Shown here: piece after piece, positions 2,998-43,473 of the stretch
Position numbering within the stretch: position 1 is the stretch's first letter
How the letters are laid out: each line of letters opens with the position of its first letter
Origin: a virus
Taxonomy: Duplodnaviria > Caudoviricetes
DNA length: 64,000 nt
Virus record (IMG/VR): IMGVR_UViG_3300031555_003309
Coordinates: 1-64,000 of that record
Direction: 5' to 3' (one strand)
Translations under genes and position numbers: made by a program
The notes under the pieces: model-generated
The model's input: only the letters and a program-made list of their open reading frames with translations
Told to the model about the DNA's origin: nothing
Database searches by the model: none

Positions 2998-4944
2998 ATG
3001 GGCTTTTTGTTCGGTATACCTAAAAAACTAATAAAAAGAATTACAGAAATTGAAATAGATACTCATTATTATGATACCGATGTTGTTCCTTCTAATCAAA
3101 GTTTATTCACTTATGAAATAGATGCAGAAAATAAAACTGCAATTATAACAGGATTAACTGATGAAGGTAAAAGAAGAAACAGTTTGGTAATACCATATAG
3201 AATAAAATATGGACATGATACATCTCCATTATATGCAAATGTAATTGCATTAAAAGATAATTGTTTTAAAAATAATTCTAATTTAAAAGATATAGTAATT
3301 CCTAATACTATTCATGAAATTCCAAAAGGAGCTTTTCAAGATTGTATTAATTTAAATAAAGTAACAATTCCTAAATCAATAAATCATATATACGAATATG
3401 CATTTGATAATTGTTATTCATTAGGCGGTCTTCTTATTCCTTATCAAGTAGATATAATAGAAGAAAATGCATTTAATAATTGTTTACTCAATGATAGTAA
3501 TTTTAATATTATTTGTTATAAAAATTCTCCAGCAGAATCATTTGCAATAGCGAATAATATACCTTATTCATTGATATCTTATAGAACAGGTATCATTGAA
3601 GAAAATAGTGATAATTTAGTTACAAGTCATGATATTTGGAGTGCTTTTAAACATATTCATGATAGATTGATAATTGCTAAAAATGAATTAACTGATAAAA
3701 TTAATACCGCTGTTCTTAATTTAACAAATCATATTAACGGAGTAGATGAAAAATTAACTAATAGTATAAACAATACTAACATAAATTTAAATGCACTTAA
3801 TGATGATTTAAATGAACATATAAGTAATAAGATTAATCCTCATGATGATAGTTCATTTACAAATACATCTTTAAATGGTGTTACTAATATTAATGAAGGA
3901 TTATTAACTAATGTCAGTGATAATGATTTATCATTAGTGAATAAAAAATATTTAAAAGATGCAATACAATCAATAGATGTAAATGTAGATGGTTTAGATA
4001 TAAGTGGTTTACAAAAGGTTTATGATTCAAACTTAATAACTACTAATAAAACTATAGTAGGTGCTATAAATGAATCAGTGAATAGAATACATAGTATTTC
4101 TGGAAAATTATTAGCAGGTTGGAATACTGTAAGTTTAGATTATTTATATCCCATAGGCTGGTCGTTTTTAGATAAGCCATATTGTTATACAGAAAATGGG
4201 GTAAGTGTAGATTTTAGAGTAAAAGAGTTACAACCTACTGAATTTAATATTATAAATAATTCTAATACATTTAACATGTATGTACCTATTGCATGTAATT
4301 ATTCATTATCTACAGTTGAAAATAATATAATTTCGGGATTTCCTATTGATTATCTCGTTATTAGTTACTATTATACAGGAAATGATGGTACTGATTTAGA
4401 TACTGTAACAGAAATTACAAATCCTAATTGGCCGACGACTATAAGAAAAAATATAGGATATGGATATAATCCAGATAGACCTATAACATTTAATAATATG
4501 GAACTAATTAAATTTTCTGGTGATAATACAGGTGGTGGTATCGCTCATGCCAATGATAAGTTTTACGAGTGTGTATATTTTAATATTAAAGCTATTCAAG
4601 AAATATTAACAGATGAAGATATTGAAATTATTTTATATGCAAGTTGGTATAAATCACGTGGAAATGGACACATAAATATTTCACTTCAAGCTTATGCAAA
4701 TGAAAAAACTCCTACAGTTGTAGATTTAGGAAATACATTTGCTGTAAAAGTAGATGATGTAGAGCTTAATCCTACATATAAAAATGTAAGTGAAATAGAA
4801 TGTTATATTGAAAGTTTTAGTAATAGTAATAAATCTTATTCTGAAAATTATACAACCAAATATACTCCCGCTTTTAAAATTATATTCCATAAAACAACAA
4901 ATGATTCAAATTATAGAACGGTTACAATAGTACCATTGAGTTAA
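2998..4944 (+). CDS. Tail fibre/receptor-binding-like protein with BspA LRRs
   Basis: LRR_5 repeats (LKDIVIPNTIHEIPKGAFQDCINLNKVTIPKSI), a coiled coil, the fibre motif LITTNKTIVGAINE and a C-terminal beta domain (DGTDLDT...FSGDNTGG). Confidence 0.7.
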   Translation: MGFLFGIPKKLIKRITEIEIDTHYYDTDVVPSNQSLFTYEIDAENKTAIITGLTDEGKRRNSLVIPYRIKYGHDTSPLYANVIALKDNCFKNNSNLKDIVIPNTIHEIPKGAFQDCINLNKVTIPKSINHIYEYAFDNCYSLGGLLIPYQVDIIEENAFNNCLLNDSNFNIICYKNSPAESFAIANNIPYSLISYRTGIIEENSDNLVTSHDIWSAFKHIHDRLIIAKNELTDKINTAVLNLTNHINGVDEKLTNSINNTNINLNALNDDLNEHISNKINPHDDSSFTNTSLNGVTNINEGLLTNVSDNDLSLVNKKYLKDAIQSIDVNVDGLDISGLQKVYDSNLITTNKTIVGAINESVNRIHSISGKLLAGWNTVSLDYLYPIGWSFLDKPYCYTENGVSVDFRVKELQPTEFNIINNSNTFNMYVPIACNYSLSTVENNIISGFPIDYLVISYYYTGNDGTDLDTVTEITNPNWPTTIRKNIGYGYNPDRPITFNNMELIKFSGDNTGGGIAHANDKFYECVYFNIKAIQEILTDEDIEIILYASWYKSRGNGHINISLQAYANEKTPTVVDLGNTFAVKVDDVELNPTYKNVSEIECYIESFSNSNKSYSENYTTKYTPAFKIIFHKTTNDSNYRTVTIVPLS

Positions 4945-10478: not shown

Positions 10479-10492
10479 ATATTTAATTAAAG

Positions 10493-10537
10493 ATAATAAG
10501 ATTTTGGTAATATTTACTAAAGTCTTATTATTTTTTT
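10493..10537 (+). terminator. Intrinsic terminator
   Basis: ataataagattttggtaa / ttactaaagtcttattat stem (with G-U pairs) followed by a T-run. Confidence 0.65.
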
Positions 10538-10578
10538 GTTTAAATGTAATAAAGTTTAATACAATTATAAAAAAACTA

Positions 10579-10607
10579 TTTACAAATGAAGTAAAATGTG
10601 TTATAAT
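10579..10607 (+). promoter_or_regulatory. Host sigma-A-type promoter
   Basis: TTTACA - 17 bp - TATAAT with an extended -10 TG and an A-rich upstream tract. Confidence 0.75.
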
Positions 10608-10657
10608 TAAATCAGAAATTAAAACTACATAATTTTATTTAAAAAGGAGAATTTATT

Positions 10658-16435: not shown

Positions 16436-18373
16436 ATGTCATTGACATTAGAAAAAATTAAAGAATATAATTCAAAAATACCAGAACATGTTTTTAAAAA
16501 TGGAGTAAATAAAAATTCACCATTTTGTTTTTTAGACTTTGAAGTATTTAAACATGATTGGTTAATATGTTTTTCAACCGACGGTGTCAACATAAAACAC
16601 ATAATCAACGATCCTGTGCAATTAAAAAAATTATTCTTAAAATTGCATGACAGAATTCATATTGCCTATAATGGTAATAACTATGATAAACTTATTGCTT
16701 TAGGATTATTAAATGATTTAAATCCTAAAGAAATAAATGATAATATAATTAATAATTTCAATTTTAATTTCAATATGACATATGGAAATTTAATAAGAGA
16801 AGGTAGAGAGTTAATGTGGTACGATCCATCTAGTAGATTAGGTGGATCGCTTAAAACTTATGAGGCCTGTGAAGGTGAAAATATATATGAATCAGAAGTT
16901 GATTTTAATTTAGACAGAAAATTAACTCAAGAAGAAATAGATGAAACTATTAAATATTGTTCATTTGATGTTGAAAAACTTATTCAATATTTTTATAAAG
17001 AAAATTTTGATTCATTCTTAGGTCATATAGGTTTAATAGACCAAACATTACAAGCTAGACCTTGGTTAGATTTTTCAGTTTGTTTACCAAAAACAGATGC
17101 ATCTTTAGTAGGAACTTATTTATGTACTGAGAAAAAAGATGATCCAACTAAAGACACAGATGTAATACAGTTGCCTGATAATATTATGTTAGGTAAGTAT
17201 GAAAATCAAATTAAAGAATTTTTGGAAATACCAATTAAAACTTTGAAAAAAGGTATATATAATTCATTAAATGCATGGTCTTTAAAAACAATAGAAAAAT
17301 CAATTAATAGATGTACCGATGAAACATTTCTTAATAAATTAAAAAATAAAGAAGAAAAAGCATTAAATAAAATTAAAAAGTTAAAAACAAGTGTAATAGA
17401 ATTTAAAAATAAATCGGTATTAACAGACAAACAACAAGAAAAATTAGAAAAAACCACTGAAGATATTAAAGTTGCTGTTAGTGAGTTAAATGAAATAAGA
17501 ATAGCAATAGATACTGAAAATAAATTATTACATCGATTGCAAGCATTAAAAATAAAATTAGATGAACATAAGTGTTTAGATTTTTGCAATCCATTATATA
17601 ATGAGATTTTAGCTAACATAGTAGATATAGCATATGAAACTAATAGTCCTAGTACTACAAGTAAAAAAACATTATTGATTGACTATCTTAACTCTTCACT
17701 GCAAAAATTATTTGATTTAAAATACACTTTAAACAAAAAAGAAACACCATTTAATTCGATTTTAATTGAATGTTCTTTTGAAGTTATATTAAACATAAAA
17801 GGAATTCCTCATTTATTTAAAACAGGTGGTATACATAGTGTTGCAGGTAAATCACTATTTTTTGATAAATCAACAGAGCATGATAAAAATAGAAGATTAT
17901 TAATTGCCGATGTAGGATCACTATATCCTAATTTAATGAGAGTGTTTGGATTGTGTTCAATAGGTATGGATAATCCACAACAATTTGCACAAATGATATT
18001 TGATAGAATAGAATTAAAGAAAAAGAAAGATCCATTCGCAAATGTATTAAAACTTATTCTTAATACTACATATGGATGTATGGGAAGTGTTTATAATAAT
18101 TTGTATGATCCAACCAATAGATTAAAAGTATGTATTTTCGGACAATGTACTATTGTAGATTTATTAGATAAATTAGAAGACCAAGTTCCAGGATTAGAAA
18201 TTTTTCAATCTAACACAGATGGTATCATTATTTCTTGTGAAGATCATGAATACGATAATGTTGAAAGAATAATTCATGAATGGGAATCAAGAACTGGATT
18301 AGAAATGGAAATCGAGGAGTGTTTATATTTGGCACAACGAGATGTTTCTAATTACATCCTTATAGAGAAATAA
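16436..18373 (+). CDS. Family B DNA polymerase, N-terminal part (exonuclease + palm/fingers)
   Basis: ExoI LDFEV, ExoII YNGNNYD, ExoIII YCSFD; motif A DVGSLYP, motif B KLILNTTYG, motif C NTDG; ends right after RDVSNYI. Confidence 0.9.
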   Translation: MSLTLEKIKEYNSKIPEHVFKNGVNKNSPFCFLDFEVFKHDWLICFSTDGVNIKHIINDPVQLKKLFLKLHDRIHIAYNGNNYDKLIALGLLNDLNPKEINDNIINNFNFNFNMTYGNLIREGRELMWYDPSSRLGGSLKTYEACEGENIYESEVDFNLDRKLTQEEIDETIKYCSFDVEKLIQYFYKENFDSFLGHIGLIDQTLQARPWLDFSVCLPKTDASLVGTYLCTEKKDDPTKDTDVIQLPDNIMLGKYENQIKEFLEIPIKTLKKGIYNSLNAWSLKTIEKSINRCTDETFLNKLKNKEEKALNKIKKLKTSVIEFKNKSVLTDKQQEKLEKTTEDIKVAVSELNEIRIAIDTENKLLHRLQALKIKLDEHKCLDFCNPLYNEILANIVDIAYETNSPSTTSKKTLLIDYLNSSLQKLFDLKYTLNKKETPFNSILIECSFEVILNIKGIPHLFKTGGIHSVAGKSLFFDKSTEHDKNRRLLIADVGSLYPNLMRVFGLCSIGMDNPQQFAQMIFDRIELKKKKDPFANVLKLILNTTYGCMGSVYNNLYDPTNRLKVCIFGQCTIVDLLDKLEDQVPGLEIFQSNTDGIIISCEDHEYDNVERIIHEWESRTGLEMEIEECLYLAQRDVSNYILIEK

Positions 18374-18390
18374 TTATAATTTTTGGTATT

Positions 18391-18496
18391 AAAATTACCA
18401 TTCAATTTAATGTTTTAACCATTTAATATATATTTCTATTTAAAATAGTTTATTATTTTCTAAAATGGTTTATGGACATATTTGAATGGTAATTTT
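18391..18496. repeat. Long imperfect hairpin inside the polymerase split
   Basis: 15-bp perfect arms aaaattaccattcaa (18391-18405) / ttgaatggtaatttt (18482-18496); inner stems atgt/acat, aaccattt/aaatggtt and ctatt/aatag. Confidence 0.85.
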
Positions 18497-18549
18497 TATT
18501 AATAATTTTTACTTTAAAATGCTATTATATATTATCGGGAGGAGATATC

Positions 18550-19044
18550 ATGGATTATCCGGCATTTATTAAAACTATTGAAATTAAAAACGGATTTAAA
18601 GTTAAAGTGAAAGGAGGTTCTGTTGGTAAACCTAATGAATTTAATAAAAATCTTATAATTATTAAAAAAGCATTAGTTAATCATTTTATAGAACACAAAA
18701 CTATATATGACACAATTAGAGAAAATCAAGATTTAATAGATTATCAAATTATAAAGAAAAGAACAGCAAAAACTAAATATAAAGATATGTTAACAAATAC
18801 AGACTTACCAGATAAAGTATTACGTTTATTTCCTGTAACTCAAGGTGGTATGCAAATATTGACTGACACTTATAAACAAATACCTGATGTTCCAGAAAGA
18901 ACAGTACTAATTAAAGATGATATTCGAAATAAAACTATCAATGATATTCCAAATTTTGATATAAATTATTACATTGAAAAATTCAATGATGAATTAGAAT
19001 CATGGTTGTCTGGAAAAGAAGAAATTAATGAAGAAAATATTTGA
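18550..19044 (+). CDS. Family B DNA polymerase, C-terminal (thumb) part
   Basis: KVKVKGG (the KxKG motif that normally follows D-V-x-N-Y), IIKKALVNHF, DLIDYQIIKK, FDINYYI; own strong RBS gggaggag. Confidence 0.75.
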   Translation: MDYPAFIKTIEIKNGFKVKVKGGSVGKPNEFNKNLIIIKKALVNHFIEHKTIYDTIRENQDLIDYQIIKKRTAKTKYKDMLTNTDLPDKVLRLFPVTQGGMQILTDTYKQIPDVPERTVLIKDDIRNKTINDIPNFDINYYIEKFNDELESWLSGKEEINEENI

Positions 19045-19167
19045 TAATTTTTTTGAATTTATTTTTGTTCATAAATGGCTAGATGTATAATAGAATTTTC
19101 TAATTGTAAGGTATACGTAATTTAGAAATGAATAAATATTTAGTTTAATTCAAACTAAATTTCAATT

Positions 19168-19182
19168 TAAAATACAACTAAA
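19168..19182 (+). promoter_or_regulatory. TAAAATAnAAnTATA motif variant upstream of nrdD
   Basis: taaaatacaactaaa after the hairpin atttagttt/aaactaaat. Confidence 0.4.
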
Positions 19183-19209
19183 ACAATTTGAAAAGGAGAC
19201 TTATTTAAA

Positions 19210-25588: not shown

Positions 25589-28500
25589 GTGGTGACAATT
25601 TTGACTAATTCAGATTTTTCTTCAAATATACAAGCTGTAACGTTTAAACAAAATTCAGGCGGTATTATTGGAATGTTTATTGATGTGAATGCAGATACAA
25701 TTTTTAAAGAAATAACATTGTATATAGGACATTCGTCAACTAATAATCATTTTGCTCCTGCTAATGGAAGAAATATCACCGTTGGATATTGGATTGTTGA
25801 TGAAACGTTTGATAAAAATTTTAATATTGATGATTTAAATATTCCTATTTTAGATAAAAGCGAAAATATATTACAGCCTATATATTGCAATAAGATAAAT
25901 TGTTTAAGTCCTACAGATAACGTTGATTCTATAATTTATGGTAATGGTGATAAAACCTTTATAAATACAAATAACATACCATTAGATTCAATGTATAGAT
26001 TTTCTTTTTCATTTGATCTAAATGATGTTGATCAAGAAAAACTTTTAGTAAAAAATGGAAAGATATTTTTAGCTATAATATCTAATTCATTAAGTTATAG
26101 CACGACTGCATTGACAATCGGTATGAATGTAGGTGGTACTTATTATTATACTGAAATGCAAGATAATTCAAAAACTCATAAATCTAATTTGTTTAGTATA
26201 TATTATGAAAATATAGTGACTGGAAAATTATTAGATGATGCAAATGTAGAATTAGAATCATCAAAACCTCCTAAAATAAGGTGTAGTGATATAAGGTATA
26301 GAACATTATCTCAAATAGAAGATAATGTTTATAGTGATGGTTCATTTACTCCAGGGTATGATGATGGTGGTGAAACATTTGAAGAAGCTTATAAGAGATA
26401 TTTAGATAATGGAAAAAATCCACAATATTGTATTTTTAATGAAGATTATAAATTCAATAGTGATTTTAACATATCTCAAGGTAATCTAAAAGATGTAATA
26501 TTTGCCAAGCCTGAATTAGAAGCATTTAATAGAGGTGGAGAAGGAGATTTAGATGAAGCGAGATGGGTGTTTAAACGCTCGAGAATAAAATTTACAATAC
26601 CACCGGTAAGAGATAAAAACGGTAATATTAGAAAAGTAACAATGTATGTTAGATATAAAGTTGTAGCTGATATTCATGACACTTATTCTATAAATGGAGT
26701 TAAAGCATATAGAAACAAATATGTAACTAAGATATATTCTTATGATGAAACAAATAATGGTTATATAGACTTAGTTATTTGTCCTCGTGATGAAGGAGTT
26801 TTAGATAATGGTGAATTTAAAGTTGTACTGGAAAGAGCATATGCAAATATTAAAACATATTCAGAACCAGCAGAATATTATTTTAAAACTTATCAAAAAC
26901 CTATAGTTAACATAGCTTATCCTAAAATAACCCGAAATCAATACACTGGAAAACATGGATTTAATTATTGTAAAATTCCTACATATAATTTATATGCTAA
27001 TTTTAAAGGTGAAAATTCAATATGTAGTAAACATGTATGTGATGCATTAAATTTACAATTGGCTAGTCCTAAACCAGACACGAGTGGCATTCCATTATTT
27101 GTTCGTTTTTATATAGCTGAATATAAATATGGAAGAAATGGATGTTTAAAAGAAACTAAATATGAAGATGCAAATCCAGATTTTGATTTAGATAAATTTG
27201 ATACTTTGCAAGATTTATATGTATCTAAAAATAAAAATGATTATACCAGTGAAGAAGATATATTATCAGGTAATGCAGTTCCTTTATCATATATGACAGG
27301 AATTAATAATTGTGATGGTAATCCAATAGTATTATCTGGAAGATTAACTGATAAAAATATAAAAGATTTAATAACTGATAAAAATGGTCAACAATTAAAA
27401 CTTTGGACTTATAGACAATGGGATGCTATTCCTAAAGAACAAGATGACATATTAGTGGGTAATTATTCATCATACACTAATAATGGAAACATACAAATAG
27501 GGTTAAAATTATGTGTAGAAAAAATAAATGGTACATACAATGTTTATGTTAAACTTCCTCGTTGGTTAACTATAACACAATTAATTAATCAAGCAAATAC
27601 TATAACGTTTAAAGCTAAAATTGATAATAAACCTACTTCAAATGTAGCCATATGGCTTTTAGATCCTAACTACAAAAATGGTAATGAAACAGTATATTTA
27701 TCATATGCTGTAACTAATAAAGATACAGGACTTGCAACATTACCTGATAACAAAATTAATAACAAAATTTTAGAAGTTGATATTGCATCTAAAACTTTCA
27801 CTAATGAAACTTATGGAACTTATAGTGATGGTGCTCTTGAATTAAATTTTTCATTATCTTCTCCATATAATTTAACTAATAAAGTAGTACCTGATCATTT
27901 TGGACCGCCTGTAGTTATAAATTATGATTCTCAAGATAATCCTACAGAAGTAAAACAAGAAATGAGTAAAGCGTTATTATTTAGAGCAGGATATATATAC
28001 TTAGTTAAAGCTAGAGTTTTTCATGGAGCTGCTGCAGGAGCTATATATGAAAAATACGGCGATATTAATCCTATTATTTACGGATATGGAAAAAGTAATG
28101 GCAATAGCGGAAAATATGATTATTCGCGTTTTACACTATATGGAGGCAAATATCCTTATAATGATAGTAGTAAATTTGGAGATGATAAACCGTATTATGA
28201 TGAAGACAGTAGATTAAAATGGCATGGTCCTGAAGATGGTACAACTAATGTTGCATTAAATGAAAGTTTAGTTAATCAAGTATATCCTGGATTTTCAGAA
28301 GCAGATCATACATTTTTTATTCCTACATGTTCATTTACATCTAAAAGTAATTTAATAACAATGCATCCTACTAGTCCGCAAATTTCTGCTAATCAATGGA
28401 TTACTTTTAATTACAGACATTTAGCTAAAAACATAGCTGGGATAGATAATAATGCATTTATAGGACTTACTTCTGATTCAGAATCTAATAAATTAGTATA

Positions 28501-31500
28501 TCAAACTAAAGGTAATTGTTTAGGAAACACTATCGGTGGTGTTCAAAACACCATGACAAGAATATTATCTATGTATAAAACATGTGTTGAAAATATGATT
28601 TGGAAATTTCATACATTAGGCGCAGGTTATCCAGATATACCATTGAATGTAGAAGAATATAAAACTAGAGTAAGAACTGGAAAATTTTATGATACATTGC
28701 TTACTTTAGCTAATTCATATTATAATTTAGGATATGTTTCTCATGATAAAGAGTGTGAGTGTGAACCTAAAATTATGTCTGAAAAATTATATATTTATAT
28801 AGATCCCATTTATAAACGTGATGTATATGAAGATGGAATTAATTATAAAAATGAATATTTATATACTGAATCATTATCTAAGAAAAATATACCTTTAGTG
28901 TACGGTTGTGAACTTAAAAATAAAACATACAATGATATAAGAAATGATGCTTTTTATACCCATATAAATAAACAAGGGGATAATGAATCTACTGACAGAT
29001 ATATAATAAAAGATGATCACGGTAATGAATTATATAAAGGTGAATGTGGATGTTATGCTCTTACTAATTATTTATCTCATTTTTCAAATGATAGTTATTA
29101 TGAAATAAATGCACCTCATGAAATAAAATATTTAGAAAATGGTAAAAATGTAACACATAAAGTTGTGCATTCGCCTAATATATGGCCTGAAACAAATATT
29201 ATTTATAGAAGATATATAGGTAACGGTGGTACTGAAACAAAAAGAAAGAAACTATTAGAACCATTAGGAAATACATATAGATGGCAAGTAGTTATTAATG
29301 CAAGTAACGTATCATTAAATAATAATGAATATGATGTTAAAGAAATAAAAATTCAACATGATAAAGATGAAATTCCTGACGCATATAAAGATAATCGTGG
29401 AAATGTACTTAAAGAATTTATGAATAATGATAATACTACTAAAGATATATTAAGATATTTCCATAGACCATATAGTGGTAAAAACACCATATATAATAAA
29501 AATGAAGCAGATGCAGAAAAATCATTTTTAATAGGAAGTCATGAAGAATTAGTTTATTACGATAACATTCAAAATTCATATTTTTATAATGAAATAAAAG
29601 ATCCGAATTTTAAATATGACAATTTAATATCAAAAGATAGTAATTATTTTAGAAGATTTACAATTAATGAATTTGCAGGTATTACTACTGGACATGCTTC
29701 ATATTCATCAGGTTATCCTGCAATGTATACTACTAAATGTTCTTCTAATACAAATTATTATAGCCATATTGAATATAGTAAATATTTTAGTAATAAATTG
29801 ATTATTCCAAAAGATTATGGAGAATTATATACAAGAATACCTACAATGTTAGATTGTGAAAATGGTATAATTAGCAAAGATCAAAACAATATTCCTAATT
29901 CAGGAGGTATTGGCTTTACTAATCACAACAACAATATAGATGATGTTAAATCTAATTGCATTCCATATGTAAGGACTACCCATTACTTATATTTTAAAAC
30001 TTGGATAAATACTCAATTTAAATTTGTTATAAAAGTTAATTTGAAAACAATAAAAGCACATGAATATGATGTGAGTTTAGATGAAGAAGGAAATCCAGAA
30101 TTGATACTTAAATGTTTTGATAGTATAGATGAGCATAATGAAGAAAATATTCAAGATGTTACTTATGCTATTCATTTTGGATCTAGAGCACTAAGAGCAG
30201 AATTCACATCAGGTGCTGAAAATTTATATGAAATTTATTCAAATATTTTGACTAAAGATAATATATTCGTTGAAAAAATAAATGAATCAGAAATATATCC
30301 GTGGGATCCAAACATGATAGTTAATGAACATGGACACTATGTAAGATACGGAAATGAATGTGGATTATCAGAAGTTTATGGTGAAGATAATGGTGGCTGG
30401 GGAAGATGTTTATCTGCAGATGATGCTTCATCTAAAGTATTATTAAAAAATGGTAACATAAGTAGAGAAAAAACTAAATCTGGAGGATTAGAAGTTCCCA
30501 TATTTGTTAGAAGAACTCCATTATTGCAACCTCAATTACTATCCGACACAATTTATGATGGACAAGAACTTATAAATATATTTGCAGGAACTAGAACTAT
30601 AGAATTAGTAAAAGTTAGAGATGAATATGACACGCAGATAACTCATTGTGATCCAAATTGGTGTTTTACTGAAAATGACGCTATGAGTGGTTTTCATTAT
30701 GTAGCTCAATTTGCATTAGGAGAAGGTTTTAGTGATACACATTTACGGACTGTAACTGGATATTATTTAAATGTATATTATCCTCATTTAGCTGAATACC
30801 AGTTATATAACACGGTACCTCCAAATGGTGGTAATGCAAATAATGTGGTATATGAAAACTATCACATAGATGCAGATACAGACCCAAGTAAATCTATAAG
30901 CAATGATTTAGATGCATTAGATGCTACAAATTTAGATTTTTTAGGTGGTTCAGGTATATGTACCGCATACACAATACTACTTATCCCAAGTGATCCAGTT
31001 TTACCGAATTCTGATGATGAAGAAATGCAATATTTCACTAACACTTTTGGACACTGGAATTATTATAAACAGCCTGCAAATTATTATATGAAACCGGATA
31101 TATTCAAAATACGATCTAAAAGTATAAAAGATGCAGGTCCTGTAGTTATTACTTATTGCAGTGCTCCTTCAACTGAAAAAATTAATACCACTGATGATGG
31201 AGATTCATTAAATAAACTTATAAGTAGTTATACAAATCCTTTTAGTAAAATAGATAAAAATACTAGAGCAATAGATCCACCACCAAGTTGGAATATAAAA
31301 GATAGAGAAAAAGTTACAGGGCATTGCTTTAAAAGAATACCATTGAATTTTAATAATTTAGTAAAAGGTTATGCAGAAGTATTTAATGAAAAAAATAATG
31401 TAATATCAACATTAAATGACTTTTTTGGAAGTCAGGTATTAACTCATGATAATACTTTAAAAGTGGGATTATCTTATGATTTAGTTATAATTCCTATATA

Positions 31501-33406
31501 TACAAATGATTTAATAAATGAATTTGATTTTAACGGACTATCAGGTACACTTAATAATAATATATTAGGTGGTACAATAACTGAATCATATGAAAATATA
31601 AATAAATATTATTTTGCAGGTTCTAATCCATATGTAGGATTTAATCAATTGCAAATTGCTCAACTTACTGAAGGTATAGGTGAAATAACTGAGTCAGATG
31701 ATACTCCTGAAGGTTCTTTTGTAGATTATTCAAGTATTACTAAACGACCTTGTGATGATTGTGATATAACCAGTACTGATCATGCTATCGTTTTTCCAAA
31801 TGTAGATAATGAATTATATAATCATTCAAGTGGTGAAATAAATGAAGGTCCAGGATTCTGGCTTGATAATTCATTTAAATTGATATTAAGAATGCCATCA
31901 TTTAGAACATTAAAACCCGACAGTAATCCTGCAGGAAGTGTCGTACAAACAGATGATGGTAATTTTGATAAAGGTACTATAGAACATTGTTCTAATGGAA
32001 TGTTAGACAGTTATGATGGAGACACCGCCGATGATTTTGAATTTGAAGATATTCAAATTCACATAGGCAAAATAAATGAATTAGAACCATATGGATATCC
32101 TAATAATATGAAAACTAATTTGAACAAAATTACTAGTCATGATGAATTAGGTAAATTGCATATTATTTCATATTCAATGTGCAAAGAAAAAGGTTGGAAT
32201 GTATTTAGTAAAAAATTAGATCATTTAGATGATGATAATGATTTAGATGTAGTAACAGGTGGGTATCCGGTTCCAAATAACAAAAAATATAAAAATAGAT
32301 TTATAGAAGTAAATTTATTAAATGCAAAAATAAAAAATTCAAAAGGTGAATGGGTACCTATTTATACAGATTATCCTGAAGGCTATTACATTCAATTTAG
32401 ATGGAAGAATAAATATGTAGGAATGAATAGTTCTATGAAATGGTCTAATTGGCATGGTGGTTCATGGGATGGTGGAAAAAAATGGTGGGGTGATAAAGGC
32501 ACTGACTATTTTGTTCCTGTAAGAAATTATACCGACATAATAATAGGGTTTAGGGATTTTATTCAAGATTCTTATCCAGGTTCATGCAATAAACTTTATG
32601 ATATAAATGGTTACACTACACTACCTAATTTATATGGAGATGGTAATCACGATGCATCTGCTATAATTCCTAATTCTAAAGATTACAACATTAAAGATAT
32701 TAGAATTACAGACAGTGATAATAAAAACTATAAATTAAATAAAATATTACAAGATTTTCCATATAATAGTCAATATAAAGTATCTTATAACAAGAATGTT
32801 AAAGAAATTCCGGATAATTTAAGTAATTTCTCTAACACCATGTGGGATATTTTATATATAGATTATATCATAAGAAATATGAGTAAATTATATTGTAAAT
32901 TAAAACATAATGAAATTCATCCTGAAAGTGAAATAGTAAAAAGACCATATTGTCATTTAGCTCTTCCATATAATGATGATAATCGTGCTATTACATTAAA
33001 TTATAAATGTGCCGGATGGGATGACATGGATAATAAAAATATATCTCAAAATATAAATGTACAAAATAAACCACATCCTCAAATGTGGGATAGAAATAAA
33101 TACTATAGAAAAGTTATAACTATAGATGATTTTAAAGAATTAAATACACACTTAATTGAATTATTGGAATATATAAGGAACATTAATTTTACTGGAAAAC
33201 ATGTTTTTAATAATAAATTTGTATTACCCATAAATCCAGCTAAATTTAATACTTTTCTAGATAGAGATAAAAATTATAATTTAATTATTGGTGATTCAAT
33301 TGATATAAATCAAGGACACTCAAACATTAATAATGTTAATTATAAAAATATAACAAGTAATTATATACAAGATATCTGGGATAATATTTTATCTACATGT
33401 AGTTAA
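25589..33406 (+). CDS. Giant (~2600 aa) putative virion/baseplate protein of unknown family
   Basis: Uninterrupted 7.8-kb ORF, Tyr/Asn/Gly- and beta-rich, no catalytic motif recognised; true start may be TTG 25601 (RBS aggtgg). Confidence 0.55.
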   Translation: MVTILTNSDFSSNIQAVTFKQNSGGIIGMFIDVNADTIFKEITLYIGHSSTNNHFAPANGRNITVGYWIVDETFDKNFNIDDLNIPILDKSENILQPIYCNKINCLSPTDNVDSIIYGNGDKTFINTNNIPLDSMYRFSFSFDLNDVDQEKLLVKNGKIFLAIISNSLSYSTTALTIGMNVGGTYYYTEMQDNSKTHKSNLFSIYYENIVTGKLLDDANVELESSKPPKIRCSDIRYRTLSQIEDNVYSDGSFTPGYDDGGETFEEAYKRYLDNGKNPQYCIFNEDYKFNSDFNISQGNLKDVIFAKPELEAFNRGGEGDLDEARWVFKRSRIKFTIPPVRDKNGNIRKVTMYVRYKVVADIHDTYSINGVKAYRNKYVTKIYSYDETNNGYIDLVICPRDEGVLDNGEFKVVLERAYANIKTYSEPAEYYFKTYQKPIVNIAYPKITRNQYTGKHGFNYCKIPTYNLYANFKGENSICSKHVCDALNLQLASPKPDTSGIPLFVRFYIAEYKYGRNGCLKETKYEDANPDFDLDKFDTLQDLYVSKNKNDYTSEEDILSGNAVPLSYMTGINNCDGNPIVLSGRLTDKNIKDLITDKNGQQLKLWTYRQWDAIPKEQDDILVGNYSSYTNNGNIQIGLKLCVEKINGTYNVYVKLPRWLTITQLINQANTITFKAKIDNKPTSNVAIWLLDPNYKNGNETVYLSYAVTNKDTGLATLPDNKINNKILEVDIASKTFTNETYGTYSDGALELNFSLSSPYNLTNKVVPDHFGPPVVINYDSQDNPTEVKQEMSKALLFRAGYIYLVKARVFHGAAAGAIYEKYGDINPIIYGYGKSNGNSGKYDYSRFTLYGGKYPYNDSSKFGDDKPYYDEDSRLKWHGPEDGTTNVALNESLVNQVYPGFSEADHTFFIPTCSFTSKSNLITMHPTSPQISANQWITFNYRHLAKNIAGIDNNAFIGLTSDSESNKLVYQTKGNCLGNTIGGVQNTMTRILSMYKTCVENMIWKFHTLGAGYPDIPLNVEEYKTRVRTGKFYDTLLTLANSYYNLGYVSHDKECECEPKIMSEKLYIYIDPIYKRDVYEDGINYKNEYLYTESLSKKNIPLVYGCELKNKTYNDIRNDAFYTHINKQGDNESTDRYIIKDDHGNELYKGECGCYALTNYLSHFSNDSYYEINAPHEIKYLENGKNVTHKVVHSPNIWPETNIIYRRYIGNGGTETKRKKLLEPLGNTYRWQVVINASNVSLNNNEYDVKEIKIQHDKDEIPDAYKDNRGNVLKEFMNNDNTTKDILRYFHRPYSGKNTIYNKNEADAEKSFLIGSHEELVYYDNIQNSYFYNEIKDPNFKYDNLISKDSNYFRRFTINEFAGITTGHASYSSGYPAMYTTKCSSNTNYYSHIEYSKYFSNKLIIPKDYGELYTRIPTMLDCENGIISKDQNNIPNSGGIGFTNHNNNIDDVKSNCIPYVRTTHYLYFKTWINTQFKFVIKVNLKTIKAHEYDVSLDEEGNPELILKCFDSIDEHNEENIQDVTYAIHFGSRALRAEFTSGAENLYEIYSNILTKDNIFVEKINESEIYPWDPNMIVNEHGHYVRYGNECGLSEVYGEDNGGWGRCLSADDASSKVLLKNGNISREKTKSGGLEVPIFVRRTPLLQPQLLSDTIYDGQELINIFAGTRTIELVKVRDEYDTQITHCDPNWCFTENDAMSGFHYVAQFALGEGFSDTHLRTVTGYYLNVYYPHLAEYQLYNTVPPNGGNANNVVYENYHIDADTDPSKSISNDLDALDATNLDFLGGSGICTAYTILLIPSDPVLPNSDDEEMQYFTNTFGHWNYYKQPANYYMKPDIFKIRSKSIKDAGPVVITYCSAPSTEKINTTDDGDSLNKLISSYTNPFSKIDKNTRAIDPPPSWNIKDREKVTGHCFKRIPLNFNNLVKGYAEVFNEKNNVISTLNDFFGSQVLTHDNTLKVGLSYDLVIIPIYTNDLINEFDFNGLSGTLNNNILGGTITESYENINKYYFAGSNPYVGFNQLQIAQLTEGIGEITESDDTPEGSFVDYSSITKRPCDDCDITSTDHAIVFPNVDNELYNHSSGEINEGPGFWLDNSFKLILRMPSFRTLKPDSNPAGSVVQTDDGNFDKGTIEHCSNGMLDSYDGDTADDFEFEDIQIHIGKINELEPYGYPNNMKTNLNKITSHDELGKLHIISYSMCKEKGWNVFSKKLDHLDDDNDLDVVTGGYPVPNNKKYKNRFIEVNLLNAKIKNSKGEWVPIYTDYPEGYYIQFRWKNKYVGMNSSMKWSNWHGGSWDGGKKWWGDKGTDYFVPVRNYTDIIIGFRDFIQDSYPGSCNKLYDINGYTTLPNLYGDGNHDASAIIPNSKDYNIKDIRITDSDNKNYKLNKILQDFPYNSQYKVSYNKNVKEIPDNLSNFSNTMWDILYIDYIIRNMSKLYCKLKHNEIHPESEIVKRPYCHLALPYNDDNRAITLNYKCAGWDDMDNKNISQNINVQNKPHPQMWDRNKYYRKVITIDDFKELNTHLIELLEYIRNINFTGKHVFNNKFVLPINPAKFNTFLDRDKNYNLIIGDSIDINQGHSNINNVNYKNITSNYIQDIWDNILSTCS

Positions 33407-43322: not shown

Positions 43323-43335
43323 TTAAAGTATTATT

Positions 43336-43373
43336 AAATAAAAGTGATTTTAAAAAATCACTTTTATTTTTTT
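43336..43373 (+). terminator. Intrinsic terminator
   Basis: aaataaaagtgatttt / aaaatcacttttattt plus T-run. Confidence 0.75.
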
Positions 43374-43473
43374 ATATATTTTTATGAAAAAATAAATAAT
43401 ACTTGATACTGATTTTTATTATATATAATAAAGATTAGGTAGTTTAATGTTAAAAGAAGGTGAAATATGTATA

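Follow-up and report, generated by a model that had tools for sequence, protein, structure and literature searches.

A family-B DNA polymerase (PolB) in two adjacent genes, the second of which encodes the thumb alone, is present in the stretch analysed here (the window), positions 1 to 64,000 of the virus record IMGVR_UViG_3300031555_003309 (Duplodnaviria; Caudoviricetes). Our analysis suggests that the two open reading frames (ORFs), named ORF1 and ORF2, encode the subunits of a conserved two-subunit polymerase that descends from a fused ancestor, and that the thumb is translated from its own ribosome-binding site (RBS) and ATG. The site between the genes appears to collect inserts, and the long hairpin found there in the present phage would serve as punctuation of the RNA and not as a device for joining the halves. 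We put the probability of this reading at roughly 0.85. The preliminary description of this locus, made from the letters alone, had offered either a two-chain polymerase, with an RBS for the thumb, or ribosomal bypassing. The former has strong support, since the split, the start of ORF2 and the two halves are all conserved in a clade. The locus lies inside a 113,218-bp single-contig record of about 25% G+C, which also encodes a major head protein, a head protease and NrdD. Features of the locus are listed in Table 1.

Table 1. Features of the split polymerase locus in the window (nt, nucleotides; aa, amino acids).
Feature	Position	Strand	Basis or remark
ORF1, large PolB subunit, 645 aa: exonuclease, palm, fingers	16436..18373	+	phrog_1252, invariant motifs
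Untranslated intercistronic spacer, 176 nt	18374..18549	+	one of 10 gaps of at least 150 nt in the genome
Long imperfect hairpin with nested inner stems and an A-run at its 5' base	18388..18499	+	fold and shuffles
T-rich tract TTTTTATTAATAATTTTT, at and past the 3' hairpin base	18493..18510	+	terminator-like layout
Promoter-like site TTAATA-18-TATTAT preceded by TG (TGCTATTAT at 18520-18528)	18499..18528	+	weak
Shine-Dalgarno sequence GGGAGGAG, 5 nt before the ORF2 ATG	18537..18544	+	relatives have AAAGGAG or AGGAG at the same place
ORF2, small PolB subunit (putative thumb), 164 aa, starting MDYPAFIKTIEIKNGFKVKVKGG	18550..19044	+	phrog_1252, homologues, model

Consecutive parts of one polymerase

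ORF1 and ORF2 are in different frames, with 176 nt between them. A single profile of the PHROG database, phrog_1252 (DNA polymerase, 663 positions), spans both of them: ORF1 matches positions 274-507 (E 3.3e-81) and ORF2 matches positions 506-656 (E 1.2e-17). Because the two matches lie back to back, profile comparison identifies ORF1 and ORF2 as consecutive pieces of one family-B polymerase, in agreement with the preliminary description, which had taken them for two halves of one enzyme. Its account of ORF1 as carrying all exonuclease and polymerase motifs and ending in ...RDVSNYILIEK*, and of ORF2 as resuming 176 nt downstream, is also correct. ORF1 terminates 5 residues past the Tyr of the DVSNY motif. 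It contains, in canonical order, exonuclease motifs I-III and polymerase motifs A, B and C, and the residues D34/E36, N79/Y83/D84, Y174/D178, D492/Y497, K539/N543/Y546/G547 and T594/D595 are invariant in 26 aligned sequences.

Polymerase motif C (window 18208-18219, ORF1 residues 591-596) reads QSNTDG and is invariant in the 26 sequences. They have Asn at the position where most PolBs have the first of two Asp. Another feature of ORF1 is an inserted segment of roughly 190 aa, rich in Lys and Glu, that separates its exonuclease part from its polymerase part (residues about 265-451, window 17230-17790). This insertion is present in split and fused members of the clade and is absent from distant siphophage homologues, which match only at residues 32-264 and 452-643.

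Pfam contains no family for ORF1 or ORF2 and reports no intein domain in them. In the PDB, sequence searches gave 0 matches for ORF1 and only noise for the ORF2 profile. Among INPHARED phages no match was found to the locus by blastn or to ORF2 by tblastn; ORF1 matched 950 records there, all below 60% identity and none covering 80% of the query. No relative of the ORF2 family was found in IMG/VR.

Conservation and age of the split

A search with ORF1 restricted to proteins of 354-1129 aa gave 46 close homologues (53-71% identity), namely 41 proteins of 634-650 aa, one partial protein of 514 aa and four fused proteins of 809-811 aa. All 42 short homologues end 4-6 residues past the same Tyr (two of them with the variants TVSTY and DVSSY), and the four long ones continue directly into the thumb. 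For ORF2, a search restricted to proteins of 90-287 aa found 47, including the one in the window. The 46 others have 52-73% identity and come from contigs up to 224 kb; 44 of them are stand-alone proteins of 154-178 aa, the exceptions being 107 and 223 aa long. Alignment of 23 of the 47 proteins, chosen across the identity range, reveals that all begin at the same Met, with 37 invariant columns and the N-terminal consensus M.DY..FIK.IEKKNG. Residues 1-13 of ORF2 form an N-terminal tail that is conserved in the split forms and has no counterpart in the four fused forms. In 12 ORF1/ORF2 pairs the longest contigs are equal in size, which is circumstantial evidence for adjacency. What is expected of a natural two-subunit PolB, i.e. 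two cistrons, each with its own start signals and conserved among relatives, is seen here.

Unsplit polymerases, with which a comparison had been suggested at the outset, were found as the four fused relatives and also among more distant phages, where palm runs into thumb in frame. We fetched 80 distant IMG/VR loci with ORF1 (30-44% identity) and searched them for ORF2 at E <= 1e-3. In 49 of the 80, the match to ORF1 is succeeded by one to ORF2 in the same frame, at a distance of no more than 22 nt or with an overlap of a few bases; the remaining 31, where ORF2 had no match at this threshold, are uninformative either way. The in-frame arrangement in these 49 loci indicates that the ancestral polymerase was fused. 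A tree was computed by quick search under LG+G4. Besides the query and 5 outgroups, its 51 rows comprise 41 split and 4 fused forms, the fused ones being cut at the junction; the partial protein P0086 was excluded. One fused form is sister to all others in this tree, and the remaining three fall into a basal polytomy of poor resolution. The approximately unbiased (AU) test does not reject a tree in which the 42 split rows are held together as one clade (p-AU 0.676), and this constrained tree scores above the free quick tree. The simplest interpretation, not proven, is that a fused ancestor was split once, long ago.

Predicted structure of the thumb and of the two-chain complex

The predicted model of ORF2 has a predicted local distance difference test score (pLDDT) of 83.9 and a predicted template modelling score (pTM) of 0.79. 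In a VIA-wide fold search with this model, made independently of Foldseek, ranks 1-10 are all C-terminal thumb regions of solved PolBs, namely those of HSV-1 (herpes simplex virus 1) polymerase, Pol alpha (yeast, human), Pyrococcus abyssi PolB, E. coli Pol II, RB69 gp43 (residues 720-888), Pyrobaculum PolB, Pol epsilon, Pol delta and Pol zeta. In the model, ORF2 would accordingly fold as a PolB thumb.

Co-folding of the two chains, also proposed earlier, gave an interaction prediction score from aligned errors (ipSAE) of 0.85 (runs 0.84-0.86), as against 0.00 for the best of 3 controls; because fused PolBs are among the solved structures, this pass is a sign of likeness and no proof of binding. 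The mark used for ipSAE is reached by 58 of 80 solved complexes and by 2 of 110 mismatched pairs, counts that are only rough since author-made alignments were used. Contact agreement between the runs is at least 83% and partner pLDDT is at least 85. In the co-folded model, residues 640-643 of ORF1 pair with residues 17-21 of ORF2, so that the last strand of ORF1 lies against ORF2 residues 16-25, and this pairing places the cut in the turn of a beta-hairpin. Residues 136-152 of ORF1, in the exonuclease, contact residues 29-34 and 122-126 of ORF2. Residues 1-13 of ORF2 are modelled as a helix.

The split site in relatives

The DNA at the split site takes different forms in the relatives. The contig L082, of a derived split lineage, has 67% and 66% identity to ORF1 and ORF2 of the window and 98% to P0060; here the two genes are separated by a 23-nt spacer with AAAGGAG and ATG. 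In L084 (= P0092), which belongs to a basal split lineage, the spacer is 14 nt long with AGGAG and ATG, and a TAG is located in the thumb frame two codons before the ATG. L085 (= P0091) is fused, with one ORF of 811 aa. L087, a contig of the same metagenome-assembled genome as L081, contains an ORF1 homologue of 641 aa (96% to P0073) that ends in DVSNYILIEK and, 63 nt behind it, a second ORF with a length of at least 478 aa. This intervening ORF (3487-4920) matches the homing endonuclease profile phrog_3339 (E 4.2e-67) and also phrog_559 (HNH endonuclease) and Pfam DUF7487. Its C-terminal part is found in L083 and L081 as an ORF with its end 47 nt upstream of ORF2, so a free-standing endonuclease gene, roughly 1.7 kb in the gap, occupies the split in that lineage. 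Meaningful similarity was not found for the spacers of the relatives, and no hairpin is present in those of L082 and L084. The covarying hairpin that the preliminary description proposed to look for in related phages is not contained in these two spacers.

Since the relatives have 14 nt, 23 nt or an endonuclease gene at this place, the 176-nt hairpin spacer is, by comparison of these loci, specific to the lineage of the present phage. The endonuclease lineage (L087) is nested deep in the tree, and compact spacers are found in both a basal (L084) and a derived (L082) split lineage. By parsimony over these four observations the compact arrangement would be the older one, with hairpin and endonuclease gene added later, and 14-23 nt is probably the original split state. 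The order of events at the split site is inferred in this way.

Three further observations concern these contigs. In L083, a low-coverage contig, the 3' part of the endonuclease gene (3-495) is disrupted by a frameshift. L082 has two extra ORFs (155 and 153 aa) after ORF2, unlike the window. L081 and L087, pieces of a related phage (genome G001), are two contigs of a 1.6-Mb metagenome-assembled genome titled Bacillales bacterium, which may be a hint to the host or a binning artefact.

The hairpin spacer

Folding confirms the earlier observation that the gap forms one long hairpin with perfect 15-bp outer arms. The arms (18388-18424 and 18463-18499) are 37 nt long and 76% complementary, with a perfect 15-nt core at 18391-18405/18482-18496. 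Positions 18384-18503 have a minimum free energy of -27.7 kcal/mol (z -4.78), a stability that none of 200 dinucleotide shuffles reaches. Among 7,540 genome-wide windows of 120 nt, the folding energy is between the 1st and the 5th percentile, which is strong and not unique. Rfam contains no family matching 18374-18549, even at E up to 10.

Genes lie close together in this genome. A rough map contains 110 ORFs, 101 of them on the + strand, with a median gap of 23 nt; 22 gaps are at least 100 nt and 10 at least 150 nt long. The other long gaps typically contain perfect hairpins with short loops, an A-run before and a T-run after, with promoter-like sequences behind them. The polymerase spacer, with AAAA, a 15-bp stem and TTTTTATTAATAATTTTT, has the same layout of A-run, stem and T-run. 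A long gap is also present 3' of ORF2, which leaves the thumb gene isolated on both sides. This second gap (window 19045-19209, 165 nt) is among the ten longest and has a hairpin and a TGTATAAT-type site before nrdD. Examples of long gaps in this genome (G000) that contain perfect hairpins with an A-run before and a T-run after are 10479-10657, 43323-43446 and 99439-99652, and two of these hairpins are followed by TTTACA-17-TGTTATAAT, a likely promoter consensus of this phage or its host.

The hairpin is not needed to join the halves. From its layout we suggest that it probably acts on the RNA as punctuation, either as a terminator-like or attenuating hairpin together with the T-tract (at slightly less than even odds) or, with lower probability, as a site of double-strand processing or of RNA stability. 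This proposal has a competitor in the view that the spacer is functionless, left by a small palindromic mobile element, or by an endonuclease cassette since lost, after insertion in the already split gene. Such a view is compatible with a two-subunit enzyme and rivals only the punctuation role. It would suit the occurrence of a homing-endonuclease gene at the same position in a relative, the absence of the hairpin spacer from L082 and L084, and the structure of the hairpin itself, which has 18-nt terminal inverted repeats with one mismatch and, just outside them, a 9-nt direct repeat ATAATTTTT (18376-18384 and 18502-18510). However, a repeat of 9 nt made of A and T only is near the chance expectation and is not flush with the inverted repeats. 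A second copy of the hairpin is absent from the 113-kb genome, where the best non-self matches are at most 24 nt and AT-rich, and its arms have no exact match in IMG/VR; the multiple copies that would mark a miniature inverted-repeat transposable element (MITE) were thus found neither in the genome nor, by exact arms, in IMG/VR. Nor does the gap contain a remnant of the endonuclease (blastx E at least 3.7) or the genome a homologue of it. We regard a functionless spacer as doubtful, though of appreciable weight.

Other roles are improbable. As a translational device, the hairpin would by folding reduce the distance from the ORF1 stop to the ORF2 start to about 55 nt or less, and terminating ribosomes would pass to the thumb cistron by structure-mediated coupling or shunting across the 176 nt, which would keep the 1:1 subunit ratio that the compact spacers give the relatives. 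Alternatively, it would be a palindromic element of small size and new type, with homing to the split site of this polymerase.

Bypassing, frameshifting, damage and splicing

Gene-60-style bypassing, the second option of the preliminary description, would take ribosomes from the AAA before the ORF1 stop over the hairpin to an in-frame AAA and give one full-length polymerase. In T4 gene 60 the gap is 50 nt, a hairpin is located at the take-off site and there is no independent start. The present locus resembles that case in the stop directly after the candidate take-off codon, in the stable hairpin within the untranslated gap and in a matching codon downstream, as the thumb frame is open from 18493 and has AAA at 18517. 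However, the gap is 176 nt long and the hairpin, which begins 11-15 nt past the stop, is away from the take-off codon. An ATG behind a strong RBS opens ORF2, and this Met start is kept in 23 of 23 aligned homologues, whereas gene-60-type bypassing goes with the lack of an independent second start and with a conserved gap and hairpin. L082 and L084 remain split on 23 and 14 nt without a hairpin, and the stop in the thumb frame of L084, two codons before the ATG, leaves no room for landing. Bypassing is therefore very improbable here. The echo of the IEK end of ORF1 in a downstream IEIK, to which attention had been drawn, is present in the sequence but is not above chance in local alignment (p 0.39, 0.10 and 0.39 in three pairs).

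Two related candidates were rejected. A duplication at the junction, indicated by the same echo, scores at chance in a Lys/Ile/Glu-rich proteome. A -1 frameshift fusion was suggested by L082, with an A-run before the stop and an open thumb frame, and is rejected, as that frame is closed by a stop in L084 and by many in the window.

Damage, either as a decaying polymerase gene or as an assembly error private to this contig, is also highly unlikely. The sequencing runs with this stretch are metagenomes from the bovine gut and from the faeces of animals. Two other runs, of two different studies, have contigs that correspond to 18390-18819 and 18398-18814 with zero differences and cover the hairpin and ORF2; one further contig corresponds to 18142-18387. 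Coverage is only 2-4x. None of the contigs listed for the sequencing runs bridges 18387/18390 or spans the entire stretch, so the joint between ORF1 and the hairpin is given by the source assembly. Besides the identity of the hairpin and ORF2 in these runs, what argues against damage is that 42 homologues, the most distant at 53% identity, have the same break, that 44 stand-alone thumbs are intact, that the catalytic motifs are all invariant, and that both halves match the profile fully. Run X3 also contains a variant strain, with 7 differences in 199 nt towards the end of ORF1, whose contigs end at 18377 and restart at 18617. The spacer of this strain (18378-18616) may differ or merely lack coverage, the gap being partly uncovered in X3; taken at face value, this interruption and the unbridged joint are what could be said for damage.

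A small self-splicing intron in the gap, or a split intein that joins the halves, would account for a structured RNA between the halves of one gene and has a negligible probability: group I and group II introns are longer than 176 nt, the gap has no Rfam match, relatives are split with only 14-23 nt, no intein domain is found by Pfam, and ORF1 ends 5 residues past the palm motif while ORF2 has only about 13 extra residues.

Two observations on the rest of the window may be added. It contains no tRNAs, and a single ORF of 2,605 aa is present on the + strand at 25589-33406.

Weighing the proposed two-chain polymerase

Several points weigh against the reading of a two-subunit polymerase with a punctuating hairpin. 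On the structural side, Foldseek against the PDB gave no match for the ORF2 model at E <= 0.001. The thumb matches of the wider search, with Z 3.7-4.5 and root-mean-square deviations of 4.3-5.5 A over 95-120 residues, are weak in absolute terms (Z <5), although they agree in kind and position where each is weak singly. Likeness to solved fused PolBs may explain the co-fold pass, and the N-terminal tail of ORF2 (residues 1-15) is outside the confident interface. On the side of expression, no RNA runs are among the sequencing runs listed with the stretch, and independent translation and assembly of the two chains are inferred from genes and model. On the side of history, the free tree requires two state changes, of which the well-supported branches force only one, and the spacer DNA comes from only four relatives. 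To these the unbridged joint at 18387/18390 has to be added. As regards the hairpin, its interior is a folded 76 nt compared with loops of a few to about 17 nt in the other long gaps, and a terminator scan that needs a loop of 3-8 found 0 sites here. Promoter-like sites number 51 against 57.3 expected in shuffles. Of the start signals proposed for the thumb, the RBS lies 5 nt before the ATG and the extended -10 is present but weak against shuffles; in such AT-rich DNA, promoter and terminator scans are uninformative.

With these points in mind, we propose the following model for the two-subunit polymerase. A fused ancestor would have been split, and a clade of large phages of animal guts, AT-rich in their DNA, would have inherited this state. 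ORF1 would provide exonuclease, palm and fingers, and the thumb would be translated separately from the Shine-Dalgarno sequence and ATG of ORF2. As the cut is predicted in the turn of a beta-hairpin just past DVSNY, the two chains may re-form this beta-hairpin, and contacts between thumb and exonuclease might be added when they assemble. The compact spacers of 14-23 nt would suit translational coupling. Later gains at the split site would be the homing-endonuclease gene of one lineage and, in the present phage, the hairpin spacer of 176 nt, where hairpin, promoter-like site and RBS, in this order, might set thumb expression apart from that of ORF1.

Comparison with known split polymerases

Known split PolBs of phages and archaea are cut in the fingers, inside the palm or at the boundary of N-terminal and palm domains, whereas here the thumb alone is separate. 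No description of a phage PolB split at the palm/thumb junction was found in the literature searched, and within that literature the site has not been described before. The thumb-only subunit appears conserved in a clade of uncultured large gut phages with fused relatives at or near its base, which would make it a natural test of how far a polymerase tolerates a detachable DNA-gripping domain, with relevance to processivity, subunit exchange and the engineering of split polymerases. One split site is seen in four states within the clade, i.e. fused, compact split, with endonuclease gene and with hairpin spacer, and this bears on the question whether endonucleases cause splits or invade existing ones. 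Annotation can use the name PolB thumb subunit for the 164-aa gene and for its stand-alone homologues, of which 44 had been unnamed.

Phage RM378 has a PolB split between the N-terminal and palm domains (excerpts of PMC3061061). In Methanothermobacter, PolB is naturally encoded by two genes (Kelman et al. 1999), which is thought to result from invasion by a mobile element (intein); there the split is in the palm, the genes are about 85 kb apart and the organism is an archaeon, not a phage (excerpts of PMC3061061 and PMC4104785). Closer to the present case, the chimallivirus PhiKZ makes a phage family-B polymerase from two polypeptides, DNAP-N and DNAP-C, which form a stable 1:1 complex with normal PolB architecture. 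As PMC13648687 describes it, that cut falls within an insertion of the palm located between motifs A and C, gp82 and gp50 are non-adjacent genes, and the C-terminal subunit comprises part of the palm, the fingers and the thumb, in contrast to the thumb alone here.

Aeromonas phage Aeh1 offers a parallel in a different enzyme. Its NrdA-a is separated from its NrdA-b by the endonuclease gene mobE, and their short new tails are essential (excerpts of PMC3045599). Both cases concern an essential replication-related enzyme in two genes at a site occupied by a homing endonuclease, with tails that are absent from fused relatives. In Aeh1 the tails were shown to be essential, whereas the 13-residue tail of ORF2 is outside the confident predicted interface.

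The nearest known case by analogy is the split gp43 (43A/43B) of the T4-related Aeromonas and Acinetobacter phages 133, 44RR, 31, 25 and 65 (Petrov et al. 2006 and 2010, as cited in PMC3061061 and PMC2988022). This polymerase is cut at the finger tip, and the intercistronic sequence varies from 2 bp to 3 kb among relatives (excerpts of PMC3061061); the mention in the preliminary description of a split in the fingers agrees with this account. In 44RR the sequence between the genes is an untranslated intercistronic sequence (IC-UTS), in phage 25 a seg-type homing-endonuclease gene is present there, and 43A and 43B co-purify and are active (excerpts of PMC2988022). In both systems, a phage PolB is encoded in two adjacent cistrons with a variable sequence between them, either an untranslated spacer or an endonuclease gene. 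The present polymerase differs in belonging to an unrelated clade, with no match in Pfam or by sequence in the PDB, in having a long hairpin as spacer, and in being known from genes and model. Its break, 5 residues past the Tyr of DVSNY and downstream of motif C, is past the last palm motif and not in the fingers, so that the small subunit is the thumb alone. The two polymerases might thus work alike while being cut at different places.

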